This document shows, one piece after another, positions 4,360-11,584 of a stretch of 64,000 bases of DNA. The notes beneath the pieces are model-generated. The model searched no databases. It saw only the letters and a program-made list of their open reading frames with translations, and was not told where the DNA came from. The translations under genes were made by a program, and so were the position numbers. The first letter of the stretch is position 1, and each line of letters opens with the position of its first letter. Source of the stretch: an uncultured Flavobacterium sp. (GTDB taxonomy: Bacteria; Bacteroidota; Bacteroidia; Flavobacteriales; Flavobacteriaceae); assembly GCA_965650235.1 (NCBI GenBank), contig CBFGNY010000003.1:4520-68519 (forward strand), read 5' to 3'.

Positions 4360-4446
4360 AGAGAGGTGTCCGAGTGGTTGAAGGAGCTAGCCTGGAAAGC
4401 TAGTATATGGGTAACTGTATCGAGGGTTCGAATCCCTTCCTCTCTG
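4360..4446 (+). tRNA. tRNA-Ser (GGA)
   Basis: Acceptor stem agagagg/cctctct, D-arm ccgagtggttgaagg, anticodon arm ctagc-ctGGAaa-gctag, long variable arm, T-arm gagggTTCGAAtccctt. CCA is not encoded. Confidence 0.96.
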
Positions 4447-4453
4447 CGAAATG

Positions 4454-4490
4454 ATCCCGCAATTTCATAAAATGAGATTGCGGGATTTTT
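4454..4490 (+). terminator. Intrinsic terminator after tRNA-Ser
   Basis: atcccgcaatttcat / atgagattgcgggat stem followed by a T tract. Confidence 0.8.
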
Positions 4491-4800
4491 GTTTTATGAT
4501 ATGTACTATTCTGTATTGCTGGTTGAAGTTTATTTAATATATAATATTAAAAAGATTTTTGTAAAAAGTCATATTTTACCATTAACAGGAATAGTCAATT
4601 TACAGTAATGCTATAATTTGTATTAGTTGTAAGTCCTGTAGATGTATTTTGAGCTAATTTGGGAAATGGTATATTCTTAAAGGTCAAATATCCATTCTGT
4701 TTGCCTATCGAATCAGGTAACTTTTATCTAAATTATCACTTAAGCAATAGCTTGCAGTTAATGCAATTATTGCAACTAAAAATAGTCTAATTGTTCATTA

Positions 4801-5218
4801 TTATTGATTGAAACATTTCTGATTTGAAAAAGAATTTTCTTCTTTGTAACTATTTTTCATAACGTCCCGAAAAGAGGTATTGCTCATTTCCGTTTTAAGG
4901 TCAATTTCGTTCTCATCCTCCAAATGTTCGAATCTAGGTGATAAATTAATTACTTCGCCAGTATCTCTTATTGTGTATTCGTAATGCAAGCTAGCAACTT
5001 TTTCAATTCTACCTGCCAGTTCTGTTCAATAAGTCTTGACATGTTTGTTCATTAAATGTGGAAGAGATGAAATGTGGAAGAGATGTTAGTTTTATTAGCG
5101 GTAAGATAAAACTTTCCTGTTTATTGCTCTTTACCATTGTTGTTCCGCCTTCAATTTCTAAAACAAAGAATTCTTTTCCTTCTTCTGTTTCTTTTTTTTA
5201 ACCAATAATTCTTACCAT
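4801..5218 (-). pseudogene. Decayed conserved Bacteroidota hypothetical gene (MVRII...FFVLEIEGG...YEYTIRDTGEVI type)
   Basis: Minus strand from ATG at 5218 reads MVRIIG*KKETEEGKEFFVLEIEGGTTMVKSN. After frameshifts it continues GKFYLTANKTNISSTF, NEQTCQDL and ELAGRIEKVASLHYEYTIRDTGEVINLSPRF. Lesions: in-frame TAA, short indels and a 16-bp tandem duplication. Confidence 0.7.
5054..5085. repeat. 16-bp perfect tandem duplication inside the pseudogene
   Basis: aaatgtggaagagatg twice (5054-5069, 5070-5085). Confidence 0.95.
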
Positions 5219-5458
5219 TTTTTCTTATTTTTTTGAGTTAAACATTTTTTTTGACAAAGACTTTTACTGCTTTTAGACACACAGCTATCAACTTGTGTTA
5301 TCTTATTTTGCTGGTAAAATTTGTTCTTTGTCTCTTATGTGTGGGGGGGTTGGAATTGTATCATTAATGGGGCATGGTTTACTGGGAAGTTTGAACTCTC
5401 GTTTTTTTTATTTTTATTTTCAGTTTTTTATTTTTAGTTAGTTATGTCAAAAAAAAAT

Positions 5459-5466
5459 TATCTTTG
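5459..5466 (+). promoter_or_regulatory. Bacteroidota sigma-70 -7 box for the methyltransferase operon
   Basis: TATCTTTG matches TAnnTTTG, 24 nt upstream of ATG 5491. No clean -33 TTG at the canonical spacing. Confidence 0.55.
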
Positions 5467-5490
5467 GTAAGATATTTTCCCAAATTTTTT

Positions 5491-6726
5491 ATGTCATCAT
5501 TAAACTATATAGATTTATTTGCTGGTGCTGGAGGACTCTCAGAGGGATTTGTACGAGAAGGATTTTCGCCCATTGCCCACGTTGAATATGATAAAGCAGC
5601 ATGTTTCACCTTGAAAACTCGTGTTGCCTATCACTATCTTAAGGAATCCAAAAAGGAAGAGATTTACTATTCCTATCTTAAAGGTGAAATAAACAGGTCT
5701 AAATTATATTCTTATATACCAGAGAATATTATCAATAGTGTTATTAATGCTGAAATAGGTAAAGACAATTCTGCTATTTTTAATTCAATAGATAATTCAT
5801 TACAAGGCAAAGAAGTTGATTTGATAATTGGGGGGCCTCCATGTCAAGCCTATTCTCTCGTAGGTAGGGCACCTCTTAAACATAAAAAAGATGATGAGAG
5901 GACAAAGTTATATATACAATATGGACGTTTCTTAAAAAAGTATCAGCCTAAAGTATTTGTATTTGAAAATGTACCGGGCTTGTTATCTGCTGCTGATGGC
6001 TTATATTTTAAAAATCTTAAAAAGTACTACAAAAGCCTTGGTTATAAAGTTGATGCAAAGTTGCTTAATTCTTTTAATTTTGGAGTTGTTCAGCATCGTG
6101 TCCGTGTGATAATAATTGGATGGAAGAAAGAATTGAATTTTTCATATCCTGAATTTGAGTCAACGAAAGAAAAATTTTTCCGTGATGACATATTCCTTGA
6201 TTTACCGGTAATTAAAACTGGAGAAAAAAGAATGGTTCAGAAATATGCAAAAGAGACTAATACATATCTACAGAATACAGCTATCAGAAATGGAATAGAT
6301 TTTATAACTCATCACATTACAAGACCACATAATAAAAAAGATTTAAAAATATATAGACTGGCAATTAAACAGCTTGAAAAAGGGATTCGCCTTAAAAATG
6401 ACCAAATACCTGAGGCTAACCGAACCCAAAAAAATGTAACTGATTTTCTTGATCGTTTTAAAGTTGTTGATGTGGAACCACATACTATGATTGCTCATAT
6501 TGCCAAGGACGGGCATCATTTTATACATCCAGACCTTAAGCAATTAAGATCAATTTCTGTTAGAGAAGCTGCCAGAATACAGTCCTTCCCAGATAATTTT
6601 TATTTTGAAGGAATTAAAGAAAATCAACCCCGAACAGCTGCTTTCAAACAGATTGGAAATGCAGTACCTCCATTAGTGTCTGAAAGTATTGCAAAACATA
6701 TTAAAGCAAAAATGCTAAATGAGTAG
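5491..6726 (+). CDS. dcm: DNA (cytosine-5)-methyltransferase
   Basis: All main C5-MTase motifs in order: IDLFAGAGG (I), GGPPCQAYS (IV, catalytic Cys), FENVPG (VI), QHRVRV (VIII), SVREAARIQSFP (IX), QIGNAVPP (X). ATG 5491 preferred over TTG 5464. Confidence 0.96.
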   Translation: MSSLNYIDLFAGAGGLSEGFVREGFSPIAHVEYDKAACFTLKTRVAYHYLKESKKEEIYYSYLKGEINRSKLYSYIPENIINSVINAEIGKDNSAIFNSIDNSLQGKEVDLIIGGPPCQAYSLVGRAPLKHKKDDERTKLYIQYGRFLKKYQPKVFVFENVPGLLSAADGLYFKNLKKYYKSLGYKVDAKLLNSFNFGVVQHRVRVIIIGWKKELNFSYPEFESTKEKFFRDDIFLDLPVIKTGEKRMVQKYAKETNTYLQNTAIRNGIDFITHHITRPHNKKDLKIYRLAIKQLEKGIRLKNDQIPEANRTQKNVTDFLDRFKVVDVEPHTMIAHIAKDGHHFIHPDLKQLRSISVREAARIQSFPDNFYFEGIKENQPRTAAFKQIGNAVPPLVSESIAKHIKAKMLNE

Positions 6727-8824
6727 TAAAAAAATAACCTTTGAACCGCGTGCCAGATTGCTTCTCCAATTAGGAGATCAGTTAATCCGAAATGAGAGTA
6801 TTGCATTTATGGAACTTATTAAAAACTCCTATGATGCCAATGCTTCTTTTGTTAAAGTTTACATGCGAAAAGTAAACAATAAAAAACTTGGAGAAATTGT
6901 TATTGAGGATGATGGGATAGGAATGAATATCGATATTATAACAAATATATGGATGCAACCTGGTAGTGACCATAAGTTAAAAATATTGGACTCTATTAAA
7001 AACAAATTGGATGAAAGAATGCCGATTGGAGAAAAAGGTATTGGAAGGTTTGGCGTACATAAATTAGGTTATGTAATTGAACTAACAAGTAAAATGCAAA
7101 ACGGCAAAGAAGTTTATTTTAAAATTAACTGGCGGGATTTCGAAAAGGATGATTTGCTTAAAAATATAAAGGTAAATATTGTTGAAAGAGATGAACCAGA
7201 ATACTTTGTTGATGGTATAACTGGAACACATATTGTTATAAGGGATTTAAAAGCAGAATGGAACAGAGGAACAGTTAGAGAATTATACAGGTCTGTGAAC
7301 TCCTTAGGCTCTCCTTTTGATAGCCTTAATTCTTTTAAAGTTTACTTTTCTATAGATAATCAAGAGTGGTTAACAGGATTAATGTCTTTTAAACAAATTA
7401 GAGATAATGCTCTTTATTATGCTGAGGCGACAATTGAAAATAATAAAGTTTTAAAACTAGATTATGAATTTAAGCCATGGGATACAATGTCCAAAATTGA
7501 AAGTAGGAAAGTTACGCTTGAAAATATATTAATGGTTAAAGATGTTAAAGATGAGATTACAAAAAAAACAGTTCAGGAAGAAATAAACCTTTCAACAAAT
7601 GATACTGCTATTGGAAAAATTAATTTTAAACTTTTAATTTTTGACCGTGAAAATAAAATTTTATCACTCGGAGTCTCGGATAAAAAAGGTTTTACAGGCT
7701 ATCTTGATACTAATGGAGGAATTCGCGTTTTCAGAAGTGGAATTCGGGTATATGACTATGGTGAGCAGAGCAATGATTGGTTAGGACTGGATATGATGCG
7801 TATTAATCAGCCGGGGAAAACTATTAGTAATAATATAATCATTGGAGCAATTAATTTAGACAGAAGGACTAGTAAAAGTCTTGAAGAAAAGACAAATAGG
7901 GAAGGATTCGTTGAAGATGAAGCGTATTTCAAATTTAGGGATGCCATACGTTTTACTTTAGATAAAATTTTGACTCAACGAAATATTGATAAAGAAAAGA
8001 TCCGAAAATTTTACAGCACATCCTCAGTTAGCCAGCCAGTAATTGGAAGTCTGGCAATTTTGCAGGATAAAATCATTGAAAAAGTACCAAAAAAAGACCA
8101 GGATGAACTTTTAACTTCTATCCGTACAATTGAAAATGATTACAAAATGATAAGTGATATATACATGCGAAGTTCAAGTGCTGGTTTAAGCTTGGGAATC
8201 ATTATTCACGAAGTTATACATATGATAGCAGAGCTTGTTGCAGCAGTGAAGAAGAAGCCTGTCGACAACTACATTAATGAACTAATTAAATCATTGCAAA
8301 AAACTGTCAGTGATTATGCAGGAGTTATAAAACAAAGTCCAAAAAGTAAAGAGGATTTAATAGAAGTTATAGACCAGGCACTATCCAATATACAATATAG
8401 GATTAAAGCACACGAACTTGAAATTGTAAAACAGTATAAGAAAAGAGTTAATATCAATACTTCAGTAAGATGTTCTCGTAGTTTAATAATTAGTACAATT
8501 ATAAATCTGACAGATAATTCAATATGGTGGCAAAATTATGCAAATGTTAAAACCAAAAAATTATTTGTTGATATTTTAGAAGAACCCGAAGGCTATACTT
8601 CTATTCTTATAGCTGACAATGGTCCTGGATTTACTATATCTCCCGAGGATGCAGTAAAACCATTTATTTCAGATAAACCAGGCGGAATGGGATTAGGACT
8701 TCATTTAGCTGATGAAGTTATGAGTAGTCAAAAAGGTCTTCTAATTTTCCCAGAGCCTGATGACTTTGAAATCCCTGAAGATTTTAAAAAGGGTGCTAAA
8801 ATTTTACTTTCAATAAAAAAATAA
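6719..8824 (+). CDS. MORC/HSP90-like GHKL ATPase fused to a C-terminal histidine kinase module
   Basis: N-terminal ELIKNSYDA, EDDGIGM and GEKGIGRFG. C-terminal H-box GIIIHEV (His497), N-box NLTDNS, G1 ADNGPGF, and F/G2 PFISDKPGGMGLGL. No transmembrane segment. Overlaps the dcm stop by 8 nt. Confidence 0.9.
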   Translation: MSSKKITFEPRARLLLQLGDQLIRNESIAFMELIKNSYDANASFVKVYMRKVNNKKLGEIVIEDDGIGMNIDIITNIWMQPGSDHKLKILDSIKNKLDERMPIGEKGIGRFGVHKLGYVIELTSKMQNGKEVYFKINWRDFEKDDLLKNIKVNIVERDEPEYFVDGITGTHIVIRDLKAEWNRGTVRELYRSVNSLGSPFDSLNSFKVYFSIDNQEWLTGLMSFKQIRDNALYYAEATIENNKVLKLDYEFKPWDTMSKIESRKVTLENILMVKDVKDEITKKTVQEEINLSTNDTAIGKINFKLLIFDRENKILSLGVSDKKGFTGYLDTNGGIRVFRSGIRVYDYGEQSNDWLGLDMMRINQPGKTISNNIIIGAINLDRRTSKSLEEKTNREGFVEDEAYFKFRDAIRFTLDKILTQRNIDKEKIRKFYSTSSVSQPVIGSLAILQDKIIEKVPKKDQDELLTSIRTIENDYKMISDIYMRSSSAGLSLGIIIHEVIHMIAELVAAVKKKPVDNYINELIKSLQKTVSDYAGVIKQSPKSKEDLIEVIDQALSNIQYRIKAHELEIVKQYKKRVNINTSVRCSRSLIISTIINLTDNSIWWQNYANVKTKKLFVDILEEPEGYTSILIADNGPGFTISPEDAVKPFISDKPGGMGLGLHLADEVMSSQKGLLIFPEPDDFEIPEDFKKGAKILLSIKK

Positions 8825-8829
8825 TTGAT

Positions 8830-10461
8830 ATGGCTAATTTTCAATTCCCTTCTGATGGTTCAGTTGTTATCATTGACGACGTTGTTGATGATGCATTGCC
8901 ATTAATACAACTTTTATCTCAGAGAGGAATTGCAACCACCTACTATTCTGGAAGAAGTGATAATGATTTGCCTGAAATTCCTATTCAAAAAATCAGATAC
9001 GCTTTTGTTGATATTCAATTATTTCCAGCCGGTGATGCTAATTCTTATGCTCAAAATATTAAAAGACTATTAGAGCGAATAATACCCATTAATAATGGGC
9101 CATATATATTAATGATATGGAGTACTGTTGAATGGATTCATGCAGATGCTGTAGAAGCATTGGTTTCAATGGATAACTTTGAACGGAGACCTACCGAAAT
9201 TGTCAGACTTCAGAAAGCTTCTTACTTTATAACTGAAACAGATAACAGTGTCCGTGATCAATTGATTGAAGATATTAATGAAGATATGCAGGTAAGATTT
9301 ACTGAGGAGGATGTTGAAGCGGTTAATAATTTTATAACGGATAAATTACCTCTTTATCAAAGTAAGAGACTTAAACCTAATGCTCTAAGTAATATTACTG
9401 ACAAGCTTAACGAAAAATTAAAAGGAACAAATGCCTTTCATCTCTTTATATTATGGGAAAAGTTGGTAAATAAATCATCAGGAGATATTGTAAATAACTA
9501 TTCAACTCTCCATCAAAAAAACAAATATTGGGAAGAGAATCTTAAACATAGTATTTATCGTATGGCTAAGGCTCAGTTAGGAATGACTGTTAATGAAGTA
9601 TCAGAAAATGAGTTGCTGAAGAATGCTTTAAAAACTATGAATAGTACTTTTATTGATTCTTTAGAAAACAAGCTCTCAGTATTTGATAATATTTCCTCAA
9701 CAATTAAAATTGACAAGGGCAATATTCTTTATTTGAAAGAAATTGCCGAAAATGAATATAAAATCAGGCTAAGAAACGGAAAGTACTCTTTGTTTATTAA
9801 TGGAGCAAGGATGCCTCCAGGAACAACAAATGAAGCTGCCAATATTGAAACTTTAAAGAAATGGAGTAATGGTAATCAACAAATTTTGGCTAACATTACT
9901 TCTACAATAGATGAGTTTTTATCAATTACTCCAGAGATTAACACAAAATTACTATTTGATATACTACCTCCATCCTTTATACAGCCTGGAAATGTCTTTG
10001 AAAAAGATGTGCAAAATTGGAAAAGAAGGAGGAATTTACTTGGAGATTATTTTGGACGGGAAGCCGTATCAAAAAAAAATAATCAACAACAATTTGAAAT
10101 TTCAAATGATGACTTAAGAAAAGTCATTTTTATAGAATTAGAGGTTACTCCCCTATGTGATTATGTTCAGAACAAGTGGAGAAAATCCAGATTAGTTTCT
10201 GGAGTACTCGTTCCTAAAGAATTAGAAAAAAAACTTCAAAAAAGCAATAGCCATTATTTATATGATGAGATTCCATTGGTAAAAATTAATGGACTATTAT
10301 ACAAACCTGTTATTGATTTTCGTCTTTTCAAATCAATAGATATAAAAAGAACACCTTTGGTTCAACCTCCTTTATTTAGGGTTAGAAGTGAACTTTTCGC
10401 AGATATATTATCCAGATTATCAAGTCATGCAAGTAGAGTGGGGATTGCTTATTTGGAATAA
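8830..10461 (+). CDS. Receiver (REC) domain protein with about 400 aa of unassigned C-terminal region
   Basis: VVIIDD (D16/D17), FVDIQL (D61), IWS (S98) and LQK (K129) fit the CheY-like pattern. The C-terminus has QPGNV, EVTPLCDYVQNK and SRVG but no recognisable HTH output domain. Confidence 0.75.
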   Translation: MANFQFPSDGSVVIIDDVVDDALPLIQLLSQRGIATTYYSGRSDNDLPEIPIQKIRYAFVDIQLFPAGDANSYAQNIKRLLERIIPINNGPYILMIWSTVEWIHADAVEALVSMDNFERRPTEIVRLQKASYFITETDNSVRDQLIEDINEDMQVRFTEEDVEAVNNFITDKLPLYQSKRLKPNALSNITDKLNEKLKGTNAFHLFILWEKLVNKSSGDIVNNYSTLHQKNKYWEENLKHSIYRMAKAQLGMTVNEVSENELLKNALKTMNSTFIDSLENKLSVFDNISSTIKIDKGNILYLKEIAENEYKIRLRNGKYSLFINGARMPPGTTNEAANIETLKKWSNGNQQILANITSTIDEFLSITPEINTKLLFDILPPSFIQPGNVFEKDVQNWKRRRNLLGDYFGREAVSKKNNQQQFEISNDDLRKVIFIELEVTPLCDYVQNKWRKSRLVSGVLVPKELEKKLQKSNSHYLYDEIPLVKINGLLYKPVIDFRLFKSIDIKRTPLVQPPLFRVRSELFADILSRLSSHASRVGIAYLE

Positions 10462-10464
10462 TAT

Positions 10465-11226
10465 ATGAGAAATAATTGGACACGTGAAGAGCATATAGTT
10501 GCATTCAACCTTTATTGTAAAATACCTTTTATAAAAATAAATGCTAACTATCCACCCATAAAAGAACTTGCTCAGATAATTAAAAGAACTAATGGTTCTG
10601 TTGCTATGAAACTTGCAAATTTCGCAAGACTTGATCCAGTTCAACAGGCAAGAAATGTCTCAGGATTGTCCCAAGGCGCAAAAGGTGAAGAAGAGGTTTG
10701 GAATGAGTTTGCAGAAAGTTGGGAAGAATTAGCATGGCAAAGCGAATTAATATTAGCCAAATATAAAAACAAACCTGTTGAGCAGTCAGCTGAGATTACT
10801 TTATTAAATGTACCTGAAGGAAAAGAAAGAGAAGCAACTATTAAAGCAAGAGTTAATCAAGCATTCTTCAGAAAAACAGTTCTTGCATCTTATAACCAAA
10901 GGTGCTGCATTACTGGCATTACAATGCCTGAGTTGTTGATTGCAGGACATATAATGCCCTGGTCTCATAACGTTGATAATCGTGTAAACCCTTCTAATGG
11001 ACTTTGTCTAAATGCCTTGCATGATTCAGCGTATGATAAAGGGTTAATATCCATAACCCCCGATTTTGAAATTAAACTTTCAGATAAATTGCTAAACAGT
11101 TTTAAGAAAGGTGAAACGGAATTATTTTTTTCTCCCTATGAAAATAAAAAAATAAGCTTGCCAAATAAATTTCTTCCACAAAAAGAATTTTTAGACTATC
11201 ATATCAATACTATATTTCAGAAATAA
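10465..11226 (+). CDS. HNH endonuclease (restriction-type, HNH_2-like)
   Basis: QAFFRKTVLASYNQRCCITG, LIAGHIMPW and NPSNGLCLNALHDSAYDKGLISI. The N-terminal WTREE...KLANF helical domain is typical of putative restriction HNH proteins. Confidence 0.9.
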   Translation: MRNNWTREEHIVAFNLYCKIPFIKINANYPPIKELAQIIKRTNGSVAMKLANFARLDPVQQARNVSGLSQGAKGEEEVWNEFAESWEELAWQSELILAKYKNKPVEQSAEITLLNVPEGKEREATIKARVNQAFFRKTVLASYNQRCCITGITMPELLIAGHIMPWSHNVDNRVNPSNGLCLNALHDSAYDKGLISITPDFEIKLSDKLLNSFKKGETELFFSPYENKKISLPNKFLPQKEFLDYHINTIFQK

Positions 11227-11305
11227 TACCCTCATAATTCACAACAACACTCAAAAGCATGGTTGCCATAAAAAGCACTTGTACGAAGTGCGAAAAGACC
11301 AAAAA

Positions 11306-11415
11306 TTAATCTTGCAGTGCCACTCTTAGCTTTAGGCAAAATGCGTTCTGCAAATAGCATATAAGTAGATTCAGAAGCATGTAAACCATCTGAAGCAACT
11401 AAATGAGGATTGCTG
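11306..11415 (-). pseudogene. Relic 3' end of the SGNH hydrolase gene (diverged direct repeat of 22357-22465)
   Basis: Translates SNPHLVASDGLHASESTYMLFAERILPKAK versus SNPNLVAPDGLHPSESAYMLFVERILPKAK in the intact gene. Hand alignment gives 18 mismatches plus one gap in 110 nt; the 1-nt insertion frameshifts the last codons. Confidence 0.9.
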
Positions 11416-11449
11416 GGTCGTAATTTCTCGCTTAAATGTATTAAATAAT

Positions 11450-11481
11450 AAAGCCTGCAAGTTATTAATTTGCAGGCTTTT
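11450..11481. terminator. Intrinsic terminator downstream of the PUL
   Basis: aaagcctgcaa-gttattaat-ttgcaggcttt, 11-bp stem with A/T tails. Confidence 0.75.
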
Positions 11482-11584
11482 GCTTTTAACAGTAACAAAA
11501 ACGGTTTAAAATTTAAATCGTTTTCTTTGGTACCTGCTTTTCGCAGTCAGTAGCAGGGTATTGCTAGAGAGTAGGAATCTTAAA

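Follow-up and report, generated by a model that had tools for sequence, protein, structure and literature searches.

Do the four genes at positions 5491-11226 of a Flavobacterium sp. contig form a defence system in which a His-to-Asp phosphorelay controls the cutting of DNA? The stretch analysed here, called the window, is 64,000 nucleotides (nt) of contig CBFGNY010000003.1, and all positions are given in its numbering. The four open reading frames (ORFs) are intact, lie in the same direction on the + strand, and have an overlap of 8 nt at the first junction and gaps of 5 and 3 nt at the next two; a first-pass annotation had described them in just this way. They encode a C5 cytosine DNA methyltransferase (C5 MTase), a soluble fusion of a GHKL ATPase with a histidine kinase, a receiver protein of 543 amino acids (aa) and an HNH nuclease. 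These domain calls of the annotation were borne out, three of them by Pfam and the receiver by AlphaFold2 (AF2) and Foldseek, and a soluble kinase/receiver pair is indeed wired inside an MTase-nuclease operon. The residues it had named (Cys118 of the MTase, E32, N36 and H497 of the kinase, D61 of the receiver and H162 of the HNH protein) are all present and invariant in alignments. The cassette is probably, though far from certainly, a horizontally acquired anti-phage module of a two-component-gated, restriction-modification (R-M)-like class that takes in the HEF_HK/Response_reg_2 elements of 2021 and the Ambrosia system of 2025, and it would be a distinct C5-methylase variant of that class.

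The kinase joins two ATP-using modules in one protein. Pfam places HATPase_c_3 at residues 28-152 and HATPase_c at residues 592-673, while in NCBIfam residues 497-675 align with several sensor kinases and the MutL/MORC-like GHKL head has a weak match to TIGR00585. In an alignment of 37 homologues (41-85% identity; Bacteroidota, Proteobacteria, Margulisiibacteriota, Patescibacteria and one Thorarchaeota bin), the N-terminal Bergerat motifs are invariant (E32, N36, D39, D64xG66xG68 and G104-K106-G107-G109), and so are the H-box of the DHp domain (H497-E498) and the N, G1 and G2 boxes (N596, D599-N600, D633-N634-G635-x-G637 and G656-x-G658-x-G660). The middle region (residues 200-480) is also strongly conserved, with EKTNREGF at residue 390. 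The profile of this alignment matches Hsp90/HtpG heads of the PDB across its N-terminus and solved sensor kinases (HK853, ThkA, ZraS and AdeS) at positions 492-680, with E 2e-8 to 1e-5. Given the invariant motifs and the PDB matches at both ends, both ATP-using modules look functional. With more than 4,262 matches, the kinase family is larger than that of the receiver.

The 543-aa protein is not recognised by existing models. Scans against Pfam, NCBIfam, PADLOC and PHROGs gave nothing above threshold, PF00072 and PF19192 being among the models without a match, and none of 43 diverse relatives matches any Pfam family. Matches to Fes1, CoV_NSP4_C and HEC-02B were sub-threshold and were taken as chance. 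The AF2 model, built on 41 homologues (predicted local distance difference test, pLDDT, 85), supports a receiver fold for the segment encoded at 8830-9243. Its top PDB matches in Foldseek are nearly all response-regulator receiver domains (PorX, FixJ, AdeR, CpxR and PmrA), at E 2e-3 to 5e-2, with target-normalised template modelling (TM) scores of 0.5-0.6 and a root-mean-square deviation of 3.6-5 Å over ~115-130 columns; searches of the PDB and BFVD with the full model returned receiver domains only. Helix alpha-2 is replaced by a loop. The active site is conserved, with D61 and K129 invariant, the acidic pair D16/D17 near-invariant and S98 conserved, and the canonical two-component residue set is complete across the two proteins (H-box, N, G1 and G2 in the kinase; acidic pair, phospho-Asp, Ser and Lys in the receiver).

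The most original element of the cassette is the large Pfam-less output domain of the receiver protein. It comprises a four-helix region (residues ~185-285), a beta-rich insert (~299-360) and a C-terminal alpha/beta domain (364-538); the insert is missing from shorter relatives, and many relatives have 420-470 aa. N371, G387, C443, D444 and R536 are invariant, and P441, Q447, K449, R454, H533 and G538 near-invariant, so that the domain holds an invariant Cys-Asp together with Lys, Arg and His in a family of ~1,900 clusters at 50% identity. A word-based search found 41 relatives, and an exhaustive profile search 1,889 clusters at 50% identity (E<=1e-3), 649 of which reach E<=1e-30. A separate AF2 model of residues 176-543 (pLDDT 84) has no significant fold match in the PDB (best E 0.12), and the sequence profile of the output part has no PDB match. 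Neither CptN toxin (probability 0.72, E 0.27) nor the cores of retroviral integrases (probability 0.1-0.2) matched strongly enough to be taken as its fold. Readings of the C-terminal motifs as PD-(D/E)xK, HEPN or a zinc site were dropped, the canonical motifs being missing.

The two outer genes resemble the components of a type II R-M system, and both products match R-M models in PADLOC. The C5 MTase matches PF00145 (E 1e-66), TIGR00675 (E 6e-56), the PADLOC DrmMII-type model (E 1e-158) and the MTase_II models, and has FAGAGG (motif I) at residue 10, PPCQ at 116, with the invariant Cys118, and ENV at 159. An alternative TTG start at 5464 is in frame and open. The HNH protein matches PF13391 (HNH_2; E 5e-12) and the PADLOC HNH models PDLC04132 (E 1.6e-87) and PDLC03546 (E 1.6e-45), its HNH domain spanning residues 111-253 with catalytic H162 and N178. 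A profile of 12 homologues matches VcaM4I (PDB 6yex) at residues 111-256 with E 1.2e-30, and TagI and an NCBIfam model of ScoMcrA type match the protein more weakly. VcaM4I is an EVE-HNH modification-dependent restriction enzyme that depends on 5-methylcytosine (5mC) or 5-hydroxymethylcytosine (5hmC) (PMC7897488; PDB 6yex). The HNH catalytic domain and C-terminal extension of VcaM4I are homologous to the window protein, whereas the place of its EVE modification sensor is taken in the window protein by an N-terminal domain of ~105 aa that is unrelated to it, has no Pfam or PDB sequence match and shows no recognisable PUA, EVE or SRA reader.

The same genes were followed through 24 usable loci, retrieved on protein identity or a pattern and covering at least six phyla. 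In every one of them the receiver gene is immediately preceded by the kinase gene, and in 22 the C5 MTase gene immediately precedes the kinase, with one further locus having it downstream. A vsr gene is found in the cassette in ~15 of the loci, and an HhH-GPD glycosylase gene in others. The slot after the receiver gene is more variable, being filled by HNH_2 in 10 loci, by AspBHI_N plus Mrr_cat in 2, and elsewhere by NOV_C (PD-(D/E)xK), DUF2971, HNH/HNH_5 or an HhH-GPD glycosylase. The AspBHI_N-Mrr_cat alternative is 5mC-dependent. Exchange of this kind among fourth-slot nucleases is characteristic of defence systems. Co-occurrence in other genomes, which the first-pass annotation proposed to survey, is strong for the kinase, the receiver and, nearly always, the C5 MTase, with HNH_2 in fewer than half of the loci (10/24): the conserved core is MTase, kinase and receiver protein, and the HNH gene is optional.

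The methylase class tracks the nuclease class: HNH_2 occurs with a 410-aa form, and AspBHI_N-Mrr_cat or DUF2971 with a form of ~540 aa. Across 22 cassettes, the pairwise distances between kinases and those between receivers are strongly correlated (Spearman rho 0.90, Mantel p 0.001), compared with 0.52 for methylase and kinase, so that the kinase-receiver pair diversifies as a unit while methylase and nuclease are swapped.

Some of these loci have further features of their own. L022, L025 and L041 have an HhH-GPD glycosylase gene (~212-233 aa; in L025 assigned by size and position only) where vsr would be, and its product is probably a T:G mismatch glycosylase like Mig, acting against the deamination of 5mC. 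The Firmicutes versions in Neobacillus (L034) and Clostridium tagluense (L037) have no upstream Dcm. In L034 the gene ahead of the kinase encodes a UvrD-like helicase; in L037 the Dcm gene is downstream, and a TnsE_C-domain gene upstream hints at carriage on a Tn7-like element.

The first-pass annotation knew of no experimental characterisation of the layout and allowed that it might already be catalogued. The layout is catalogued: it was described in 2021, as a class known only from computation, and its GHKL part dates back to 2008. Bellieny-Rabelo, Pretorius and Moleleki defined soluble HATPase_c_3 + DHp + HATPase_c proteins as HEF_HK (PF19191), of which 91.6% are linked to receiver-like proteins without another domain, Response_reg_2 (PF19192), in neighbourhoods where C5 methylases, Vsr and HNH_2 abound, among them those of Flavobacterium and Chryseobacterium (PMC8011034). 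The window has the same architecture (HATPase_c_3, a His-Glu DHp and HATPase_c, with an adjacent receiver and C5 MTase, HNH_2 and Vsr neighbours) and the same order and logic, that is, a C5 MTase, a soluble kinase, a receiver protein of ~540 aa and HNH_2, often with vsr.

The two groups can be compared within one genus, since true HEF_HK-type members are found in the Flavobacterium genomes L015-L018, with a Dcm of 356 aa, a kinase of ~967 aa and a Response_reg_2 protein of 544-575 aa. The HEF_HK model matches the 967-aa kinases of the L015/L017 type at E 1e-20 to 7e-20, and Response_reg_2 the 544-aa protein at E 5e-32. L015 also has an HNH_2 gene; the HNH_2 protein of these members, with 257 aa, shows 44% identity to that of the window. 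Next to the L018 system are a DUF6602 gene in divergent orientation and an HNH_2 gene of 330 aa. A HEF_HK-type kinase of this genus aligns with the window kinase in three collinear segments of 22-32% identity, the window protein being shorter (701 aa vs ~967 aa). Even with the limit relaxed to E<=10, PF19191 matches neither the window kinase nor the relatives of it in Kordiimonas and Pontibacter. PF19192 has no match in the 543-aa protein, the whole genome or the 43 diverse members of the receiver family.

Iyer, Abhiman and Aravind (2008) defined the paraMORC ATPases of R-M operons and noted for paraMORC1 both its occurrence together with HNH genes and a C-terminal extension of its own; this extension is not described there as a histidine-kinase core, and the word 'receiver' occurs 0 times (PMC2292703). 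The window kinase shares with them intact Bergerat motifs in an R-M neighbourhood, but the histidine-kinase core and the receiver partner, both present in the window cassette, do not figure in that paper. The NCBIfam model NF050001 (BbrUII/HgiDII) likewise matches only the ATPase head, at residues 16-194 (E 9e-20; 70.7 bits vs a cut-off of 550), and the kinase core lies outside that family, which shows that proteins named as m5C-system restriction enzymes can have ATPases of paraMORC type. HATPase + REC systems are among the predicted, not validated, defence systems of a 2026 machine-learning study, and a 2026 preprint treats paraMORC defence in prokaryotes as still only proposed.

Ambrosia is the closest system with experimental support. 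It consists of AbrR (XRE), AbrA (N6-adenine methylase), AbrB (a 747-aa HATPase_c_3/HATPase_c kinase), AbrC (a receiver protein of 209 aa) and AbrD (PtuB-like HNH), is reported only from Gammaproteobacteria, and confers protection on P. aeruginosa PAO1 against phages of two groups (bioRxiv 10.1101/2025.09.30.679545). Point mutations in each protein, including AbrB N40A, AbrC D60A and AbrD H60A, abolish defence; infection induces the genes, methylation by AbrA gives the phage no protection, and no toxicity was seen (bioRxiv 10.1101/2025.09.30.679545). Like the window cassette, Ambrosia is a cluster of genes for a methyltransferase, a HATPase_c_3/HATPase_c kinase, a receiver and an HNH nuclease. 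BLASTP of the window kinase against the N-terminal 399 residues of AbrB gives 29% identity in 417 columns (residues 8-399, E 7e-38), N36 aligns with the mutated N40, and the motifs YG(E/D)..DWLGL and TNREG are common to both. From this alignment the two kinases are clearly homologous. The His-to-Asp-gated defence that the first-pass annotation proposed for the window is made plausible by analogy, since Ambrosia, with its homologous kinase, loses defence when the equivalent ATPase Asn or the receiver Asp is mutated. AbrC differs in lacking the output part of ~400 aa found in the window receiver.

The same annotation had the MTase mark self DNA and the HNH protein restrict unmarked DNA. This simple reading is questionable. 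That the HNH protein cuts unmethylated DNA is uncertain because of its homology to VcaM4I, the closest characterised relative of its HNH domain, and the presence of AspBHI_N-Mrr_cat in the same slot of sister cassettes. In Ambrosia, methylation did not protect the phage.

The four-gene operon is horizontally acquired. G+C is 0.29-0.33 over 4.5-11 kb and 0.31-0.33 in the cassette block, vs 0.37-0.42 in the flanks. The closest copy, in a second Flavobacterium genome (L019), has 84% nt identity over the block 5450-11295 only, the flanks being unrelated. Distribution is patchy: of the 300 further genomes examined from the order, the receiver profile matches 1. The sister cassettes of Kordiimonas and Acinetobacter have integrases beside them. 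Plasmid and phage collections have no homologue of the receiver protein in any record, and no att-like direct repeat of the 3' end of the tRNA-Ser gene was found. The tRNA hotspot of the first-pass annotation turned out to be a single tRNA-Ser(GGA) gene, with no cluster; the DNA downstream of this gene does differ in content among the nearest relatives. The promoter-like TAnnTTTG box that it named upstream of the operon is present. The motif occurs in the window at chance frequency (103 matches vs 99.7 expected), so the box by itself is no evidence. Coordinates are collected in Table 1.

Table 1. Positions in the window of the four genes, their parts and the features at the cassette borders.
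Feature	Position	Strand	Basis or remark
C5 cytosine DNA methyltransferase (C5 MTase, Dcm-type), 411 aa from ATG	5491-6726	+	PF00145, TIGR00675, PADLOC model
GHKL/histidine-kinase fusion, 701 aa, soluble	6719-8824	+	Pfam, NCBIfam, PDB profile matches
Receiver protein, 543 aa, whole gene	8830-10461	+	AF2 model, conservation
Receiver (REC-like) domain of the 543-aa protein	8830-9243	+	AF2, Foldseek, conservation
Output part of the 543-aa receiver protein	9244-10461	+	AF2 of residues 176-543, conservation
HNH_2 nuclease, 253 aa	10465-11226	+	PF13391, PADLOC HNH model, VcaM4I profile match
tRNA-Ser(GGA)	4360-4447	+	ARAGORN; variable region with the cassette starts downstream
Cassette block common with L019	5450-11295	+	blastn, 84% nt identity; composition profile
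TAnnTTTG box TATCTTTG	5459-5466	+	Match to Bacteroidota -7 promoter consensus, 25 nt 5' of ATG
vsr 5'-end remnant	11253-11294	+	blastn and tblastn vs L019

At the right border, the HNH gene of L019 is followed immediately by an intact vsr gene, of which the window retains a truncated remnant, the rest being deleted. This remnant aligns over 14 of 14 codons with 79% identity to the L019 gene; an intact vsr lies on another contig of the same genome (G000:C95:13490-13708). An 88-aa ORF on the - strand (11232-11498) contains '...SDGLHASE..Y..FAERILP', a stretch that we take to resemble the C-terminal block of SGNH/GDSL hydrolases, and may be a gene truncated at this border. A hairpin, aaagcctgcaa...ttgcaggcttt, lies at 11452-11480 on the 5' side of this ORF. 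On the left, the ~1 kb between the tRNA-Ser gene and the cassette (4450-5450) has a G+C of 0.29 and no ORF above 62 aa, lies outside the block common with L019, and contains a tandem 16-nt repeat, AT(T/G)AAATGTGGAAGAG x2, at 5051-5082. In one relative, a 23-nt piece of the 3' part of tRNA-Ser (query positions 1188-1210) is present in six exact copies with 66-nt spacing (G304:C2:76566-76918), right after that genome's tRNA-Ser gene; these copies are either a repeated attachment-site-like sequence or a short array.

If the cassette is such an anti-phage module, it may work as follows. The Dcm-type enzyme would methylate a cytosine motif in host DNA, as suggested by its intact motifs and by the regular linkage of sister cassettes to vsr or an HhH-GPD gene, which points to real 5mC in the host. 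The MORC/MutL-like N-terminal ATPase and the middle domain of the kinase would act as a sensor, whose input may be DNA, its modification state or an infection cue, and the kinase would then autophosphorylate H497 through its C-terminal core. Phosphoryl transfer from H497 to D61 of the adjacent 543-aa receiver is suggested by the complete residue sets, the strict adjacency and co-divergence of the two genes, and the analogy with the Ambrosia mutants. The phosphorylated receiver may switch on its own C-terminal domain, the nuclease of the fourth slot, or both, the nuclease here being an HNH protein with a catalytic domain of the modification-dependent restriction type. The switch could act on protein activity or on transcription.

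A bolder proposal goes further, and it is possible but doubtful. In it the receiver output part is a phospho-activated effector enzyme (a nuclease or another hydrolase) or a licensing factor, and the paraMORC head reads the 5mC state. MTase, kinase and receiver would then form a self-sufficient "restriction by phosphorelay" machine, with the HNH protein as an exchangeable accessory.

Several observations weigh against the cassette being an anti-phage module of this class. It differs from Ambrosia in methylase chemistry, AbrA being an N6-adenine MTase and the window enzyme a C5 MTase; the receiver aligns with AbrC only around D61/D60 and without significance (hhalign E 0.37); the HNH protein has no BLAST similarity to AbrD, the one being HNH_2 and the other PtuB-like; and an AbrR-like XRE regulator is present neither in the window nor as an ORF upstream of the cassette. 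Kinship with the 2021 elements is also incomplete at the level of the receiver. Its receiver segment aligns with those of true Response_reg_2 proteins at E 0.05-0.09, which is not significant, and the C-terminal domains, which are collinear and share [ST]-[PA]-x-C-D and H-x5-R-x-G, at E 0.018; this latter match is suggestive and is not accepted as proof of homology. PADLOC has no model for the 701-aa kinase or the 543-aa receiver protein, and some loci, such as that of Acinetobacter variabilis, have no nuclease-like gene after the receiver gene. The output domain may be an adaptor only, since no catalytic fold is recognisable in it. Finally, the truncated vsr means that the window copy may be decaying, though all four genes are intact.

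It is also possible, if unlikely, that the cassette is an ordinary Type II-like R-M pair in which the kinase and receiver are only a transcriptional timing device, comparable to a C protein, that switches on the R-M genes after establishment or on infection. The MTase and HNH proteins match the Type II MTase and HNH restriction models of PADLOC, which would presumably call the pair RM_type_HNH, and the two covary in class, the 410-aa methylase going with HNH_2 and the ~540-aa methylase with AspBHI_N-Mrr_cat or DUF2971. Transcriptional control is favoured by the authors of both earlier studies (PMC8011034; bioRxiv 10.1101/2025.09.30.679545), the latter of which found the Ambrosia genes to be induced on infection. 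However, a timing device of this kind fits poorly with a receiver protein in which, as in its 43 diverse relatives, no helix-turn-helix or other DNA-binding domain was found, and in which the invariant polar residues of the output part (C443, D444, K449, R454, H533 and R536) look more like an active or ligand site. The nuclease gene is moreover missing or replaced in 14 of the 24 loci and the kinase-receiver pair never, and the HNH domain itself is of the modification-dependent type.

A distinctly less probable explanation is a self-modification-targeting or abortive-infection system. Its nuclease would cut the 5mC DNA made by its own methylase and be kept off until the relay fires, when host DNA or freshly methylated phage DNA would be cut. 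The homology of the HNH domain to the 5mC/5hmC-dependent VcaM4I (E 1.2e-30), its weak likeness to TagI and the ScoMcrA-type model, and the AspBHI_N-Mrr_cat proteins in the same slot of sister cassettes are consistent with it. The working model of Ambrosia is of this kind, and AbrA methylation did not protect the phage, yet Ambrosia showed no toxicity (bioRxiv 10.1101/2025.09.30.679545). The N-terminal domain of the HNH protein is not recognisable as a PUA, EVE or SRA reader, and the linkage to vsr implies a constitutively methylated host genome, in which a 5mC-dependent nuclease would be dangerous.

It is very improbable that the cassette is instead a methylation-linked DNA-repair or epigenetic module, in which a MutL-like ATPase, together with Dcm and Vsr, would carry out very-short-patch repair or regulate genes: the GHKL head does resemble MutL and MORC (with the weak TIGR00585 match), vsr or HhH-GPD genes are regular neighbours and MutL stimulates Vsr in E. 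coli, but distribution is patchy and mobile, the fourth-slot nucleases are exchangeable, vsr is often missing and is truncated in this otherwise intact copy, and the homologous kinase AbrB is validated in a defence system.

Histidine-kinase/receiver signalling inside R-M-like immunity is a recent subject, predicted in 2021 and validated for one system in a 2025 preprint. The cassette described here represents a large cross-phylum branch whose two central proteins both escape the present models of Pfam and PADLOC. Here the relay is linked with cytosine methylation and with repair by Vsr, and a big conserved output domain takes the place of a short tail. Since its kinase is homologous to AbrB and all other parts are swapped, a comparison of the two systems could show which part senses and which part kills. 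Such a comparison could also show whether DNA methylation is read by the MORC-like head in prokaryotes, a question that bears on the eukaryotic MORC proteins too.

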